Source of the DNA: a virus
Lineage: Duplodnaviria > Heunggongvirae > Uroviricota > Caudoviricetes
Length of the DNA stretch: 23,815 bases
IMG/VR virus record: IMGVR_UViG_2850796239_000008
Reading direction: 5' to 3' (one strand)
The position numbers and the translations under genes were made by a program. Below, one piece after another: positions 532 to 8,937 of this stretch. How positions within the stretch are numbered: the first letter of the stretch is position 1; every line of letters begins with the position of its first letter. A model generated the notes under the pieces. That model saw nothing but the letters and a program-made list of their open reading frames with translations, did not search any database and was not told the DNA's origin.

Positions 532-1767
532 CTACGATAACCGCGCATTCAACATGGCTATCTGTTCGTCGTTCATGTCATCAATCCACATACCGTAAAT
601 TTCATACACCATTTGCGCAGTTTCATGCCCCATCTGGCTGGCTATAAATGCCGGGTTCGCTCCTGCCGTCAACAGCCAGCAGGCAAAAGTATGTCGCGTA
701 TGGTACGGATTACGGCGGCGAATACCAGCACGTTTTACTGCTGCATTCCATCTTGCACCCAAACTGCTTACCGAGTAATAAGGTTTCTGTTTTTCGTTAC
801 ACACCCTGGGCATGAAAACAAAATGCAGTTTTTGCTTTTCAGTTCTGCCGTACTCCCGATGATAAAAAGTGATTTCGCTTTTGCGATGATGCCCGGTCAG
901 TTTGTATTGCTCCTTCAGTGCTTCAAGAGCCGGCTGCAGTAATGTTACCGTCCGGATCCCGGCATTTGTTTTTGGGGGACCGAACATATCAAGTATCGTC
1001 AGGTTTCTTCTGACATTCACAATTCCCTTCTCGAAATCCACATCCTCCCACGCCAGAGCTGCCAGTTCCCCGTGACGAAGCCCGGAGTAAACGGCAAATT
1101 TCCACAAGTTTTGGCTCTGTCCTTTTTCACTTTCCATTAATGCATTGAATTCTGTTTTAGATAACGGGTCAGGCTTTATTCTGTTTCGCTGTAATTTTTT
1201 TACTCCTTCAAATGGTTTGGTTGATATAAATCCCGACTGATACGCAAAACGTAACAACGAACAGAGCAGGGCGATATAGTTATCAACTGTGCGCACGGTT
1301 CTTCCTTTTTTGTTGGATCTTGGATTATCTAGGTAAAGCGTTTCTCCATGCAGCAGTTCATTCCGGTAGTTTAAGATATCGCTATAACGAATATGCGATA
1401 TCGGGGTACTCTCACAAATTATTATCCTGAGTGTTTTTAATTGTGATTTCGTTTTCTTCATTGTGTTTGTTGTTAACTCTGTCTCTTTAATTTTTGTCCA
1501 GATATCACAAAGCTCCCCGAATGTTTTTATGACCCTCGTTGTCACCATTTTTGCCCCAGTGCTGGACTGGGGAAAACGTCTTAAATACTCAAATTCACCG
1601 GAACTGATTTCATGAACTATCAACGCTCTTAAATTCCCGGCCTTTTTAATGTTACTGTTAGTAATCTCCCAGCCTTTCAATGTTTCCCGACATCGTTTTC
1701 CTCGAAACATGAACCAGATGCGAATGTATTTACCTCGAATCTCGACACCTGTTGGTAATTTAGACAT
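532..1767 (-). CDS. intR: Phage tyrosine integrase (Rac-type, 411 aa)
   Basis: 411-aa ORF directly next to ttcA; C-terminal catalytic region with HTRHTFACWLL and MGHETAQMVYEIYG (R..H-x-x-R..Y signature); ATG at 1765-1767, stop TAG at 532-534. Confidence 0.9.
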   Translation of the reverse strand: MSKLPTGVEIRGKYIRIWFMFRGKRCRETLKGWEITNSNIKKAGNLRALIVHEISSGEFEYLRRFPQSSTGAKMVTTRVIKTFGELCDIWTKIKETELTTNTMKKTKSQLKTLRIIICESTPISHIRYSDILNYRNELLHGETLYLDNPRSNKKGRTVRTVDNYIALLCSLLRFAYQSGFISTKPFEGVKKLQRNRIKPDPLSKTEFNALMESEKGQSQNLWKFAVYSGLRHGELAALAWEDVDFEKGIVNVRRNLTILDMFGPPKTNAGIRTVTLLQPALEALKEQYKLTGHHRKSEITFYHREYGRTEKQKLHFVFMPRVCNEKQKPYYSVSSLGARWNAAVKRAGIRRRNPYHTRHTFACWLLTAGANPAFIASQMGHETAQMVYEIYGMWIDDMNDEQIAMLNARLS

Positions 1768-2083: not shown

Positions 2084-2272
2084 TCACGAGGACTGAAGTT
2101 TCTCGCAATTAAAATTTATCAGTTTTACTTTCTGCTCTCTGGAAACGCCTGCTTCTTTTTCCCCTGAGAGCATTTTTTCGCATTCTGATTTCGTTAGTTT
2201 TGTCTTTGAGTATCTTGTCCAGCTGGCAGGAGAACCACCTTCCTTTTCAATAGTGGCTGTAATTTTATACAT
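2084..2272 (-). CDS. Small prophage early protein, 62 aa (possibly YdaC/DUF1187-like)
   Basis: ATG preceded by GGAGGT at 5 nt; the longer ORF in the track starts at a TTG. Family assignment is from memory only. Confidence 0.5.
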   Translation of the reverse strand: MYKITATIEKEGGSPASWTRYSKTKLTKSECEKMLSGEKEAGVSREQKVKLINFNCEKLQSS

Positions 2273-3425: not shown

Positions 3426-3722
3426 TTAGTCCTCCAAATCAATATCAACCTGGTGGTGGGCAATGGTTTCAGCCATGTACCGGATGTGTTCTGCCATGCG
3501 CTCCTGAAACTCAACATCATCATCAAATGCGTGGCTGATTGCCTGTTTATTGGCACCGTGGCGTTGCAAATGGTCGATGCAGAGCGATTCAAACAGGTGC
3601 TGAGGCAGACCTTTTTCCAGGTCGTCCGCCAGTTCCGTTTCTTTTTCTTCACGAACGATCTGCTGGTAGTGGCGAGCCCATGCCATTTCTTCAATACGAT
3701 CAAAAATCGGGTAAGCGCTCAT
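3426..3722 (-). CDS. Hypothetical acidic protein, 98 aa
   Basis: ATG at 3720-3722 (a GTG lies 3 nt upstream); stop lies 3 nt before the Sak4-like start, so tightly coupled in the operon. No recognisable motif. Confidence 0.5.
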
Positions 3723-5640
3723 CACTGGTCACTCCAAAATTTTCAAGCTTGTTGGCAATCATCATTGCGATGTCAGGGATTGCAGGCGCATAGGCTATGC
3801 ACGCAGGATTCGCACATAAACCGTAAACCGCCGCAATCAACACCTGTTTTTTCCAGTTGAGTTCATCTTCGCCAGTTTCATTATTGCTATCATTATGCTG
3901 ATCGCTGCCAGCGTTCTCCGGTAACAAATCATCAGCTTTTTCCGTTTTCTTCGGCTCTTCTTCCTGTGCTTCATCTGGTTTTTTTTCGTCAAAAGTTTCC
4001 TGATAAGTTGCGTCTCCCATCACCGCGCCACAGTCAGGGCAGTTATCCTCGCCAGTCTGATTGCAGGGTGTTCCCTCCTCCGGTTCGCTGTTCTGGTGCT
4101 GTTTATCTTCAGTCTGTCGCACTTCATTTTCCGTTTTTTTGACTTCATTTGAGGAGATATGATGACCGGGAATCCATTTCGAATCATTCGGGTCGCTAAT
4201 CCCTTCAACAAATTCTCCGCGAGAGGCAGCCAGTAATTTGTCTGCATCGACAGGATTTTTGGGCGGAATGTTTTTCCGGGCTTCATGGAGTTCTGTCCGC
4301 AGTTTCTGATATTTCGCATCAACAGCATTTACCTGTGACTGAGCATCCAGCGGCTGCGTGTCCTGATGATGTTCAGTTGCATCCGGTTCCACTGTTTCAG
4401 CCGTTGCCTGTTCATCTGCCATTGCGCAAGATGGTTGCGGTTTTTCTTCATCATCCTGTTTTCCTTCTTCTGTTACACGTTGCGGCATCGGGGCAGAGGA
4501 GCGACCGCAGGCAATATCCACGATTTCCGGATCAGGGTTGGCATGATCGGTTTCAGTCAGTACCTTGTTCAGATATTCAGTGACGTGCGCGGGGATGACC
4601 TCGATACCAATCGGTGCTTCTTTCACTGACGCAACCACGATGGCGCGGGAATAATCCATCCCGCCAGGCATGGTGATGAATTTGTCGCGGAAAACAGAAA
4701 AGGGCGGTTTATTTTCAGCGATAATTTCCTCGACACGTTTAGCGTGTGCCGGATGAAGGTTATAAATATCCACGTCCATTGAACGGGCCAGTACGCCAGT
4801 GGCTACGTCGCGCGCCAGCGACGTCAGATCGTGGACGAAACCTTCGCCGCGATCGGTGAGGTTCCCGCCGCCAGCATTAGCACCGGAAGCCGTGCGAGTG
4901 ATACGCGAAACACGATTTCCTTTCATCCACTCTTTTGTCAGCAGACCGCGATCGGTGTAGTTGGCATCCAGATATGCTTCGAAAAAAGCAGTCATCAGTC
5001 CCAGATTTGAATTACCAGGATTAGGGAAAACTTTGTCAGTATCACGCACGAGTTTGTGGAGGTCGCGAATCTCCAGCGGGTCGAGCAGACTGGTTTTATG
5101 CGAAACAGCCAGAGCAGTAACAGCCGGTAGTTCTTCATCCCGAGCAATGTGTAATGCCTGGAGTTCGTCGCGTGAAACGTGCGTTACCGGTTTTTCGCTG
5201 CCGTGTTGCGCAAGCCAACGAATGGGCAGTTCCTGACCGGAAACTGGCAGGAGCATGTTCTCCTCAATTTCTGTCATGTCTTCGCCGTTGACGTTGGTAT
5301 TGTCAGTGCTGGCTGGTTTGTCCTGAACAGAGGGAGAAGATGCGATAAATACCATTGTGATGCCATCTTCCCCGCCTTTTTCGTAACGGTTGCAGAATTC
5401 CGTATCAAACACGCCTTCTGGTGGGAGGTCATCAACAACGGGCAAATTGACGCGAACAGGTTTTTTAAAGTCATCTTCATCGTAGCCAGCATCGTCAATC
5501 GCAACAGCACCACGGGAGATGGCAATGGATAATTTTTTCGCTTCAGCCCAGTAAAAACCGCCTTTAATACCGAGGCGTTTTCTTACTTTGTCATTTTTTG
5601 CTTCGTAATACAGTGGGTAAACTTGTTTATCGGTGCTCAT
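3700..5640 (-). CDS. Large acidic early protein, 646 aa; occupies the recE position and may resemble the non-catalytic N-terminal part of exonuclease VIII; no nuclease motif seen
   Basis: Uninterrupted 1941-nt ORF with ATG at 5638-5640; long D/E-rich low-complexity stretch (about residues 380-560); Cys cluster [14 protein letters not shown]-terminus ...[18 protein letters not shown]. Confidence 0.6.
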
Positions 5641-6332: not shown

Positions 6333-6880
6333 TTATTTTAAGGAAAGCAACTGCTCTACGGTCATGTTTTTAATTGCGCCCCGGTTTACAAGAGTCCAGC
6401 CCTGTTTTTCCAGGTAGAACTGGAAAGTCTCCAGGGTACAGACCAGTGCGCCATCAGGAACGGTTTCGGTGAATTCGACATTGCCGAATTTGTCGAAGTG
6501 AACAACCAGAGTGCGACCATCACCCGGAATCATCTTGTCAGCAGGTGGGGTGTTATTCTGGCGCAGTTCGGCCTCCATGCGGTCGAACTCAGCAATGTAG
6601 GCTTCCTTGAATGTGGCGGCTTTTTTGCCCGTGAAGCCCATCACCAGGAAAACGAAGCCGTTTTTGGTGATTTGGTAGGCGTTATAAGAATTGCCGCGGT
6701 GTTCGAATTTAACCCGCGAAAAGTTGCTGGTTAAAAATAGTTCAGAACATTCGAGGGATTCTATTTTTTGAACAACATGGTGATGCTGCTTGCCAAAAAA
6801 CTCAGCAATCGAAATAGAAGTAGTGACGGCGCGACCATTTTCGATGGTTACGTCAGGGTGAGAAAGGGTAGTAGCCATAA
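6333..6880 (-). CDS. Rha-family phage regulatory protein; the ORF is open in frame up to 7172
   Basis: Phage_pRha-type N-terminus TTSISIAEFFGKQHHHVVQKIESL right after the Met at 6878-6880 (RBS GAGGA 8 nt upstream). The upstream 97 codons are Pro/Gly/Arg-rich and look non-conserved. Confidence 0.7.
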
Positions 6881-7193
6881 TGACATCCTCAAGTGATAAG
6901 TTAATTAACTCACCAGCAGAGGTGCTAATCTCATGGGTGGTGAGACGCACAGGGTTAGCACTACCGGTCACTCGAGAACCCGGCCAGCCTTGCGGCTGCC
7001 CCGCACGCCTCACCATAATTTGAATGTGGCTGTGCATTACGCATAAAAAAACCGCTTCAGCGCGGCTATGCGCTCGAGTAACTTTCGGGGTGCTAATCCC
7101 GGCACCCGTTTTATGAGGTGCAGGTGCACTATAATTCCACCCGTTCTGGTTTTCAATAGCTACATTCAACATTTTCTCTTTCCTTTCATCACC

Positions 7194-7348
7194 GAAGTGA
7201 ATTTTGTGATGCGGTGCCTGGTGCCTCCAGGTGACGTTAACCAGTTAACAATTACAGTCGGCTTTCCCACCCAAAACAATAAGGACTAACATGACTTTTA
7301 ACTGTGCCGCGTGCGCTTAGCCGCATTCACCGCATCACAAAATTCACT
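7194..7348. repeat. Perfect 22-bp inverted repeat pair (AAGTGAATTTTGTGATGCGGTG / CACCGCATCACAAAATTCACTT) flanking 111 bp
   Basis: Arms at 7194-7215 and 7327-7348 are exact reverse complements. The spacer contains GTTAACCAGTTAAC (7235-7248) and the short hairpin CCTGGtgcctCCAGG. Confidence 0.85.
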
Positions 7349-7585
7349 TTAAAAAGGGCGGACATCAGCCAGCAATTAAACCGATGCCGCCAACTGGTAC
7401 TTCACACAGCAATGTCGTTATTTACAACCGGAAGCGCACTCCCACCATTTAAATTTCACAGACAAGACCGACTCTTTATGGATACCGGAAATGCGCCTTC
7501 GTGTTGTGCCCGGTTTTATTTCACCACCTCCGGGCTTTGGTGGTATCTTTACTGAAGTTCTCACACAACCAGTAAGGAAATGAAT

Positions 7586-7876
7586 ATGCCAACGTATCTC
7601 GCCAGAGTAGAACTATATAATGCTGAGCCAGAGGATTACGAAGGGCTTCATAAATATATGCTCTCACTAGGATTCAGGAGAACGATCCCCCATGGAGATG
7701 GTTCGTATAATCAACTCCCGGACGGAACTTATGTTTTCGAAAAGGGCGGTGATATTTATCAAATTCGCAGCCAGATATCTGACTATGCAGACCGACTATC
7801 CGGGTATCGCGCGTCTGTTTTTGTTTGCGAATTCAGTCAATGCGCATGGTATTTATACCCCGCCAAGACCCGGTGA
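7586..7876 (+). CDS. Hypothetical 96-aa protein on the opposite strand to the early operon (moron)
   Basis: ATG at 7586 with AAGGAA RBS at 6-nt spacing; product MPTYLARVELYNAEPEDYEGLHKYMLSLGF... has a beta-alpha-beta-like pattern; its 3' end overlaps the convergent minus-strand gene by 24 nt. Confidence 0.5.
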   Translation: MPTYLARVELYNAEPEDYEGLHKYMLSLGFRRTIPHGDGSYNQLPDGTYVFEKGGDIYQIRSQISDYADRLSGYRASVFVCEFSQCAWYLYPAKTR

Positions 7877-8057: not shown

Positions 8058-8213
8058 TTACTCACCTGAATGTCTTCCCAACCAACGACGTGCGCCAGCT
8101 TCGGTTTTAAACGTTTTGCTTTTGGTATACGTCATGGCGGTGAATGTGCCGTCTTGATTGGGAAACACGCCACATACCAGAGATTCGTTGTTGCCAAGAT
8201 CGATAGTATTCAT
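8058..8213 (-). CDS. Small prophage protein, 51 aa (YdaF/YdfA-like, DUF1391-type)
   Basis: ATG at 8211-8213; product MNTIDLGNNESLVCGVFPNQDGTFTAMTYTKSKTFKTEAGARRWLGRHSGE matches in length and character the 51-aa Rac-region protein as I recall it. Confidence 0.55.
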   Translation of the reverse strand: MNTIDLGNNESLVCGVFPNQDGTFTAMTYTKSKTFKTEAGARRWLGRHSGE

Positions 8214-8393
8214 GTTGACCCCATTTCCCCTTAACGCCGGGTGGCGGAACGTTTTATCTACTGCGCTTTGTATCAATCAACAACTGCCGTCATGTTCGTA
8301 TGCCTCAGGCTGGCTACTTAGCCCTGTTCAGTGACTGGATAACTCGAGGTATTGTCCTGCCGTTCTCTGGTGGGGCGTTGTTTGGATATGCTT

Positions 8394-8460: not shown

Positions 8461-8937
8461 CTACAAAAAAGCCCGCTGATAGCGGGCTGATTGGCATATT
8501 ACTGTGATAGCAAGATCATTATTCCGGTGGGGATTATCTTTAATCCTGCCTCTCAAATATTTTTCTACATACTCATCGATTTCTTTTAGCCGGACTTCAA
8601 ATAGCTCAATCATTCGTTGTTGTTCTGAGCCCGGTAGCTGGTTAAACAACTCAAGAAGTTTTCGTTGGGATTCATTTAACCACAATTCAGAAGATTCCTG
8701 TTCTCCAAAGAGGAGCTCAGGAGGAGATATGCCAAGTGCCTTTCCCAATACGACAGCGTCATGTACTCCAACATTTCTGCTGCCCGCCTCATAGTTACCT
8801 ATACGCGATTGCGTCCATCCGCAGATTTCAGCAAGTTTTCCTTGAGATAAACCAAGCTTCTGCCTGCGCTCTTTAAGACGCATTGCAATTTTGTCATTGA
8901 GCCTACTAGCGGCAATTTTTTCGTTTTCTTTTTCCAT
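8461..8937 (-). CDS. racR: Prophage repressor, XRE-family HTH, 158 aa (RacR-type)
   Basis: ATG at 8935-8937; HTH region LGLSQGKLAEICGWTQSRIGNYEAG; 158 aa; divergent from a Cro-like gene across a 96-bp operator region. Confidence 0.85.
   Translation of the reverse strand: MEKENEKIAASRLNDKIAMRLKERRQKLGLSQGKLAEICGWTQSRIGNYEAGSRNVGVHDAVVLGKALGISPPELLFGEQESSELWLNESQRKLLELFNQLPGSEQQRMIELFEVRLKEIDEYVEKYLRGRIKDNPHRNNDLAITVICQSARYQRAFL
8465..8488 (-). terminator. Rho-independent terminator at the end of the repressor gene
   Basis: Minus strand reads AGCCCGC-TATC-GCGGGCT followed by TTTTTT; the hairpin overlaps the last 8 codons and stop of the repressor ORF. Confidence 0.6.

Follow-up and report, generated by a model that had tools for sequence, protein, structure and literature searches.

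A covarying helix closes an STnc100-family RNA domain behind a DicF/KilS-like sRNA in a Rac-like prophage

The window analyzed here, a stretch of 23,815 nucleotides assigned to the Caudoviricetes (IMG/VR record IMGVR_UViG_2850796239_000008), is a Rac-like lambdoid prophage, and its early-left operon, read on the minus strand, contains a perfect 22-bp inverted repeat. The two arms of this repeat are the 5′ and 3′ strands of P1, the closing helix of a structured RNA of about 155 nt encoded on the minus strand. P1 follows directly on the terminator of a KilS/DicF-like sRNA, and covariation shows that it has been kept in prophages of the Rac and Qin types in several genera. The spacer can also be tied to the widespread STnc100/PasD family. 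By analogy with Qin, P1 is probably a processing helix for RNase III, which would separate the sRNA from the message downstream; the positions of the arms give a concrete handle on the processing of RNA that is read through past the sRNA terminator. DicF, DicB and KilR, whose genes adjoin homologous units elsewhere, are prophage products that block host cell division.

The inverted repeat

The left arm, 7195–7216, is AAGTGAATTTTGTGATGCGGTG and the right arm, 7328–7349, is CACCGCATCACAAAATTCACTT; they are complementary at 22 of 22 positions, with 111 nt between them and 133 bp from start to start. The initial annotation of this DNA, made from the letters alone, had described exact 22-bp arms and a 111-bp spacer, and these hold, but its coordinates (7194–7215 and 7327–7348) have to be moved by +1 base. 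Among the inverted repeats in the window with a spacer of at most 300 nt, this is the longest perfect one. The longest perfect inverted repeats in 100 shuffled versions of the window were 10–14 nt, in agreement with the earlier view that a repeat of this length is unlikely by chance. Both of the features that had been noticed within the spacer, a tandem of GTTAAC (7237–7250) and a short hairpin, CCTGG-TGCCT-CCAGG (7217–7231), are present. The 18-nt core of the arm does not occur a second time in the window when up to 3 mismatches are allowed.

A perfect match of the arms is rare. Among 83 distinct arm pairs, 22 of 22 complementary positions were found only in the window and in a near-identical relative from Escherichia coli (L003); in the common copies P1 contains between one and three G·U pairs, or an A is bulged out.

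Genomic setting

The closest relative is E. coli FDAARGOS_944, with 99.8% identity over 7100–7600, in which the prophage adjoins ttcA. The features of the window that bear on the repeat are collected in Table 1. The RalA sRNA among them is a marker of the ralR/ralA toxin-antitoxin pair in Rac-type prophages.

Table 1. Features of the prophage window and parts of the structured RNA
Feature	Coordinates	Strand	Evidence or remark
intR	532–1767		
RalA antitoxin sRNA	2088–2266	+	Rfam, 207 bits
RecE	3700–5640	-	Pfam
Rha antirepressor	6333–6878	-	Pfam
C4 antisense RNA, upstream of the Rha gene	6933–7020	-	Rfam RF01695, 78.6 bits, cut-off 45
isrK sRNA	7045–7121 (start 7121)	-	Rfam RF01394, 66.8 bits, cut-off 50
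isrK promoter, sigma-70-type, near-consensus TTGAAA-17-TATAGT	7128–7156	-	About 40 nt downstream of P1
P1 3′ strand (left arm of the initial annotation)	7195–7216	-	Homology with other prophages stops at the outer end, 7195
Terminal hairpin, CCUGG-AGGCA-CCAGG	7217–7231	-	Abuts the P1 3′ strand; Rfam alignment
Hairpin formed by the tandem GTTAAC	7233–7259	-	Alignment, pair counts
Conserved 5′ part of the domain (AAUGCGGCUAAGCGCACGCGG, hairpin 7309–7324) and length-variable centre	7260–7327	-	Alignment
P1 5′ strand (right arm of the initial annotation)	7328–7349	-	Perfect inverted repeat; conserved pairing
Intrinsic terminator of the KilS/DicF-like sRNA	Stem 7361–7388, tail CGCCCUUUUU 7351–7360	-	Terminator scan
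KilS/DicF-like sRNA gene	7351–7445	-	End-to-end alignment with K-12 KilS (b4833)
98-aa gene	7580–7876	+	No Pfam match; antisense to the leftward operon
DUF1391 protein	8058–8276	-	Pfam
HTH repressor	8461–8937	-	Pfam

The repeat had been placed in a non-coding gap of 413 bp (7173–7585) thought to separate divergent transcription units. The region is indeed non-coding, but its extent and its description require revision. In the closest genome a 279-aa open reading frame, 6333–7172, is annotated as Rha (RefSeq/PGAP), and its reading frame crosses both the isrK and the C4 RNA gene. In the form that starts at the ATG at 6878, which is most likely the true start, the Pfam Rha domain begins at residue 19; the N-terminal extension encoded by 6879–7172 is probably an artefact of annotation, so that the genome annotation would carry a false extension across two sRNA genes. 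Because the annotated frame traverses isrK and C4, the non-coding stretch is larger than was described, from about 6879 to 7579. Nor does it divide two units: it contains the minus-strand RNA genes of a single leftward operon, in which the plus-strand gene is embedded antisense. The isrK-C4-Rha antirepressor module would have a promoter of its own, as predicted from sequence, within the early-left operon.

The plus-strand gene occupies the slot that sieB has in Rac, and in phage Rac-SA53 the shared upstream sequence extends to the first codons of this gene. A coding function for the repeat region itself, in the plus-strand frames 7068–7289 and 7304–7555, was considered and rejected, as the homologous elements range from 150 to 176 nt and differ in length by amounts that are not multiples of three, which also marks the domain as non-coding. 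A 9-codon mini-ORF with its ATG at 7292 was likewise rejected; it falls in the hypervariable centre.

Covariation and the transcribed strand

An alignment was made of 26 distinct copies of the unit from Escherichia, Citrobacter, Lelliottia, Pseudescherichia, Scandinavium and phage contigs. From these RNAalifold recovered the arms as a single helix closing a multi-hairpin domain. Nine of the 22 pairs of P1 have changed on both sides, and 97% of the cells are paired. None of 500 shuffles reached any of the measures of covariation obtained for P1, and pairing fell to 33–43% when, as a control, the 3′ partners were slid by 1–3 columns. In Lelliottia, for example, AAGCAGGUUUUAAGGUGUGGUG pairs with CACCACACCUUAAAGCCUGCUU.

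The hairpin that abuts the 3′ strand of P1 is paired in every cell of the 26-sequence alignment, and a U-A pair has become G-C in four sequences; no other motif of the STnc100 family is as well conserved as this hairpin. The tandem GTTAAC, which had been noticed as a repeated palindrome, provides both strands of an inner hairpin, CGUUAA/UUAACG, with compensated counterparts in Rac (CUGUAA/UUGCAG) and in Scandinavium (CGAUA/UAUCG). The version of this hairpin in the window is a hybrid, with a 5′ half of the Rac type, a 3′ half of the Qin type and two mismatches, which suggests recombination inside the element. The same hybrid is also present in Shigella flexneri (L113). A tRNA-like topology, with a four-way junction and the hairpin stacked on the closing helix, was considered and dropped, as it had no computed support.

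The strand on which the structure is expressed follows from its imperfections. Among the cells of P1 that are not Watson-Crick there are 40 G·U and 5 A·C, and in the whole fold 150 G·U and 10 A·C. Since a G·U pair on the minus strand corresponds to A·C on the other strand, and is a mismatch in DNA, the structure under selection is that of the minus-strand RNA, which has the same orientation as DicF/KilS, isrK, C4 and Rha. Folding of the single sequence, which the initial annotation had proposed as a check, gave a stable fold but did not distinguish the strands: both fold about equally well (z = -5.0 and -4.35), as any inverted repeat does, and it was the count of G·U against A·C that assigned the strand.

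Three possibilities had originally been offered for the repeat. The structured regulatory RNA is upheld by the compensatory changes across genera, the RNA-like bias of the mismatches and the match to an Rfam family; paired operators and a mobile element are not, for reasons given below. The minus strand, the neighboring DicF/KilS-like sRNA and the link to RNase III had all escaped the first reading.

Relation to the STnc100 family

With permissive thresholds, the Rfam model STnc100 (RF02076) matched 7203–7344 on the minus strand with 34.3 bits, which is below its gathering score of 47; the E-value was 1.2e-5 in a search of 801 nt and 3.4e-4 in a search of the whole window. In the Rfam alignment the arms correspond to the outer helix of the model, and 7217–7231 to its terminal hairpin. 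Both the closing helix and a CCNGG-AGGCA-CCNGG hairpin abutting its 3′ strand are conserved in the 26 sequences. The match covers model positions 21–154 only, leaving unmatched positions 155–206, which are the terminator of STnc100 itself.

Other long-stem units gave scores of 28.0 bits (Rac), 31.9 (Lelliottia), 34.4 (Qin), 36.9 (Citrobacter), 38.0 (Scandinavium) and 47.8 (Pseudescherichia), and short-stem units 43.0 bits in the phage P7 and 45.1 in an E. coli copy. This continuum indicates that the unit in the window belongs to a divergent subgroup of the STnc100 family, one which the Rfam cut-off misses.

STnc100 is present in multiple copies in lambdoid prophages and is related to PasD. With STnc100 and PasD the window copy shares an architecture in which a closing helix that ends in GGUG/CACC is followed by an AAU junction, a first hairpin and a variable middle, and in which the CCNGG-AGGCA-CCNGG hairpin is stacked on P1. 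It differs from STnc100 in scoring below the cut-off, in a P1 of 22 bp rather than 3–11 bp and in the sequence of the first hairpin, and it is without a terminator of its own and apparently without a promoter. The likeness to STnc100 thus supplies a name, not a mechanism.

It became apparent that the length of P1 is bimodal across 130 distinct instances of the family. An intrinsic terminator of their own lies within 120 nt in 45 of the 63 instances with a P1 of 3–11 bp, and in none of the 64 with a P1 of at least 18 bp. These counts indicate that the long helix accompanies embedding in an operon, behind the terminator of another sRNA. Searches of the literature found no description of the dicF-dicB and kilS-kilR spacers as a long-stem subgroup of STnc100, and neither the covariation of P1 nor the two-architecture pattern was found described there.

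Occurrence in prophages

A megablast search with 7100–7600 matched 4641 of 5426 complete E. coli genomes (about 85%), at a median of 2 and up to 9 places per genome; most of the weaker matches span window positions 7198–7393. Of the checks that the initial annotation had named, copies of the unit and conservation of the arms are found in related prophages, where the arms are kept by compensation, and the arm core has no further copy elsewhere in the window when up to 3 mismatches are allowed. K-12 has two homologues of the unit, which take up the kilS-kilR spacer in Rac and the dicF-dicB spacer in Qin; for both, the alignment with the window is base for base through arms and inner hairpins. 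Homology with other prophages ends at 7195, beyond which the downstream cassette differs.

One hundred long-stem copies were collected by scans of genomes and viral contigs. The 16-base pattern used in the first scan was too loose, giving many chance matches in GC-rich genomes, and the enterobacterial loci were kept. Ninety-two of the 100 lie directly behind a DicF-like hairpin and T-run, and 2 more behind a T-run alone. The gene downstream is dicB in 63, kilR in 18 and the Rha module in about 11, with a few others.

The dicF-dicB spacer of Qin is homologous over the whole unit, occupies the same slot directly after an sRNA terminator, and has a closing helix of the same 21–22 bp and the same inner hairpins. 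Three of the 21 pairs in the Qin helix are G·U; the helix in the window has 22 pairs, all Watson-Crick. Upstream there is DicF proper in Qin and the KilS-like variant in the window, downstream dicB and the isrK-C4-Rha module, respectively, and the centres of the two domains also differ. In the predicted read-through fold of Qin (L006), the terminator U-tract, 2436–2442, pairs with UUGAGGA at 2596–2602, which would lengthen the closing helix to about 28 pairs.

The kilR 5′ UTR of Rac is about 92% identical over 7195–7545 and has the same type of upstream sRNA, in the same type of prophage, integrated beside ttcA and carrying intR and ralA. In contrast with the window, one A is bulged from its helix and two pairs are G·U, and kilR follows directly. 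To our knowledge, a structured kilS-kilR spacer is not described in Bar et al. 2021.

The upstream sRNA

KilS (b4833) is a 98-nt Hfq-associated sRNA in the kilR 5′ UTR of K-12 Rac (Bar et al. 2021, PMC8175672). The sRNA at 7351–7445 aligns with all 98 nt of KilS; the loop and the single-stranded 5′ segment are not the same in the two, so that its targets may be different as well. With the Rfam DicF model (RF00039) it scored 28.6 bits at 7356–7406 on the minus strand (E = 4.7e-4), below the gathering score of 48; K-12 KilS itself scored 39.1 bits against this model. In the sense of the RNA, the terminator tail, CGCCCTTTTT (7351–7360), is followed by AA and then by the 5′ arm of P1, which thus starts 2–3 nt past the U-tract.

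In Qin of K-12 (L006), the 5′ seed of DicF, GGUGACGUU (2388–2396), is complementary over 9 nt to AACGUCACC (2551–2559), a conserved sequence of the downstream domain. A 7-nt match of the same kind is seen in the window between ACCAGUU of the KilS-like sRNA (about 7392–7398) and AACUGGU of the domain (about 7241–7247). To judge from these complementarities, pairing might occur between the sRNA and its own read-through leader.

RNase III and the closing helix

A helix of 21–22 bp, two full turns, fits the accepted size of a substrate of E. coli RNase III, and RNase III hairpins between cistrons are found in phage early operons, at the sites of T7 early mRNA, in the N leader of lambda and at sib. 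P1 resembles these T7 and lambda sites in that a helix of about two turns lies in a phage polycistronic transcript, where such sites define RNA ends and couple or uncouple the stability of the neighboring segments. The T7 and lambda sites are simple hairpins with internal loops and are unrelated in sequence, whereas P1 closes a 111-nt domain of several hairpins.

The proposal that P1 is a processing helix draws on Qin. According to the accounts in PMC5069750 and PMC9438474, which cite Faubladier 1990, full-length dicBF mRNA is processed by RNase III to a DicF of 72 nt, as against the 53 nt of the terminated form. Addition of these 19 nt to the annotated end of dicF, NC_000913.3 1649434, leads to 1649453, which is within the Qin 5′ arm, 1649441–1649462, at a distance of twelve pairs from the helix's outer end and nine from its inner one; the position rests on the quoted difference in length (72 vs. 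53), and an error of about 5 nt is tolerated. On these accounts the Qin homologue of P1 is most likely the basis of the reported RNase III 3′ end of DicF. In substance, then, as far as these accounts convey the original work, the link between the helix and RNase III has been known for Qin since 1990, and the fold is that of a catalogued RNA family.

Two further reports bear on this point. A 2023 study of the operon (PMC10448788) places an RNase III site only upstream of DicF, at the 5′ end of a 190-nt species, and mentions no downstream one. In an RNA-seq comparison, reads over 1649470 are listed only for the rnc mutant, 26 vs. 0 and 0 (PMC5371410, Table S1), a very low number that could also reflect more transcript.

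By analogy, the following course of events is envisaged in the window. The KilS/DicF-like sRNA would be transcribed from the repressor-proximal promoter or from a promoter of its own, and most transcripts would be halted by the intrinsic terminator at about 7351. A transcript that reads through would immediately gain P1, and thereby close the STnc100-family domain with its several hairpins. RNase III would then cut P1 in the read-through RNA near 7337, by homology with Qin, and near 7205–7209. The corresponding cuts in K-12 would be expected inside 1649441–1649462 and 1649573–1649593 for Qin, and inside 1418382–1418403 and 1418249–1418270 for Rac. The read-through sRNA would be left with a 3′ end about 19 nt past the terminator, it would be severed from the message downstream (isrK-C4-Rha here, dicB or kilR elsewhere), and the enclosed domain would be released. 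While P1, its strand, its homologues and its fixed position are matters of observation, we infer for the copy in the window the cleavage and what follows from it. Since the isrK-C4-Rha module has its predicted promoter downstream of P1, processing may have little regulatory effect in this prophage.

The conserved interior of the domain goes beyond what a simple cleavage signal explains. Its conservation could reflect a second regulatory RNA that the cut sets free, or else an effect of the domain as a leader on the gene downstream, and these two possibilities lead to the principal alternatives.

Alternative explanations

The enclosed domain could itself be the product, a trans-acting sRNA of the STnc100/PasD type excised by RNase III in an extended P1. 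We regard this as a tentative alternative, unlikely as it stands, and it overlaps with the processing of P1 by RNase III, differing in that function is placed in the released domain. In this form, embedded in an operon, the domain would do without a promoter or terminator of its own, and the idea would account for the two architectures, a short P1 combined with a terminator in free-standing members and a long P1 without one in embedded members. In EHEC, STnc100 copies are expressed, one of them confirmed by Northern blot (PMC5331693), and PasD, a relative, interacts with Hfq and with many targets (preprint 10.64898/2026.05.13.724894). Conservation is high in the loops and junctions of the domain. 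On the other hand, its centre is hypervariable, no RNA of about 130 nt is documented for this slot, and no STnc100 has a known target.

A related generalization, which we put forward as speculation, is that STnc100/PasD occurs in two forms: free-standing, with a short P1 and a terminator, and embedded in an operon, with a P1 of two turns and excised by RNase III. If the embedded form is as described, a single cut would mature the DicF/KilS sRNA and free a second regulatory RNA, and the same cut would reset the expression of a cell-division toxin, dicB or kilR, downstream.

It is rather less probable that the domain is a cis-acting leader that sets the translation or stability of a toxic downstream gene such as dicB or kilR, with no need of RNase III. 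Such a leader could hide the ribosome-binding site, block the loading of Rho or block access of RNase E on a long untranslated leader. The next start codon or module always follows closely on the element, and in the predicted fold of Qin the U-tract pairs with UUGAGGA, the Shine-Dalgarno sequence of dicB, giving it an unpaired probability of 0.1–0.3. The Shine-Dalgarno sequence of kilR, however, is predicted to be unsequestered in the Rac fold, and in the window the domain precedes a promoter, not a clearly used start codon. The constant length of the helix, 21–22 bp, would also be left unexplained.

That the repeat acts at the level of DNA, as two inverted regulator sites that loop the DNA or as a cruciform, is very improbable. 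A dimeric protein could in principle bind at each of two perfect 22-bp arms that start 133 bp apart, and paired operators were among the earlier suggestions. Sites for a DNA-binding protein would not show the strong bias of mismatches toward G·U on one strand; the arms diverge in sequence between genera while their complementarity is kept, typical copies have a bulge or wobbles that break the symmetry of the DNA, and the arm motif is absent, with at most 3 mismatches allowed, from the region of the repressor/cro promoters. Least probable of all is an origin as a decayed miniature inverted-repeat transposable element, to which the inverted repeats at both ends of a short non-coding stretch and the many copies per E. 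coli genome might point: the flanking sequences, CACCG and TAAAA, are not a target-site duplication, none having been obvious earlier either, the copies track lambdoid prophages rather than being scattered and occupy one syntenic slot after a DicF-like terminator (the 92 of 100 given above), and the arms drift by compensation, which fits the pairing of RNA better than sites for a transposase.

Further copies of the family were also seen. The P1-like plasmid prophages P7 (L127, 2501–2616) and D6 have a short-stem copy resembling STnc100 (43 bits), which is immediately upstream of terB within the C1-controlled ban operon, among tRNA genes. Three IMG/VR contigs (L140, L150 and L174) have two or three matches to the pattern used in the search, the terminal-hairpin motif of the STnc100 family, adjacent ones being about 253 nt apart.
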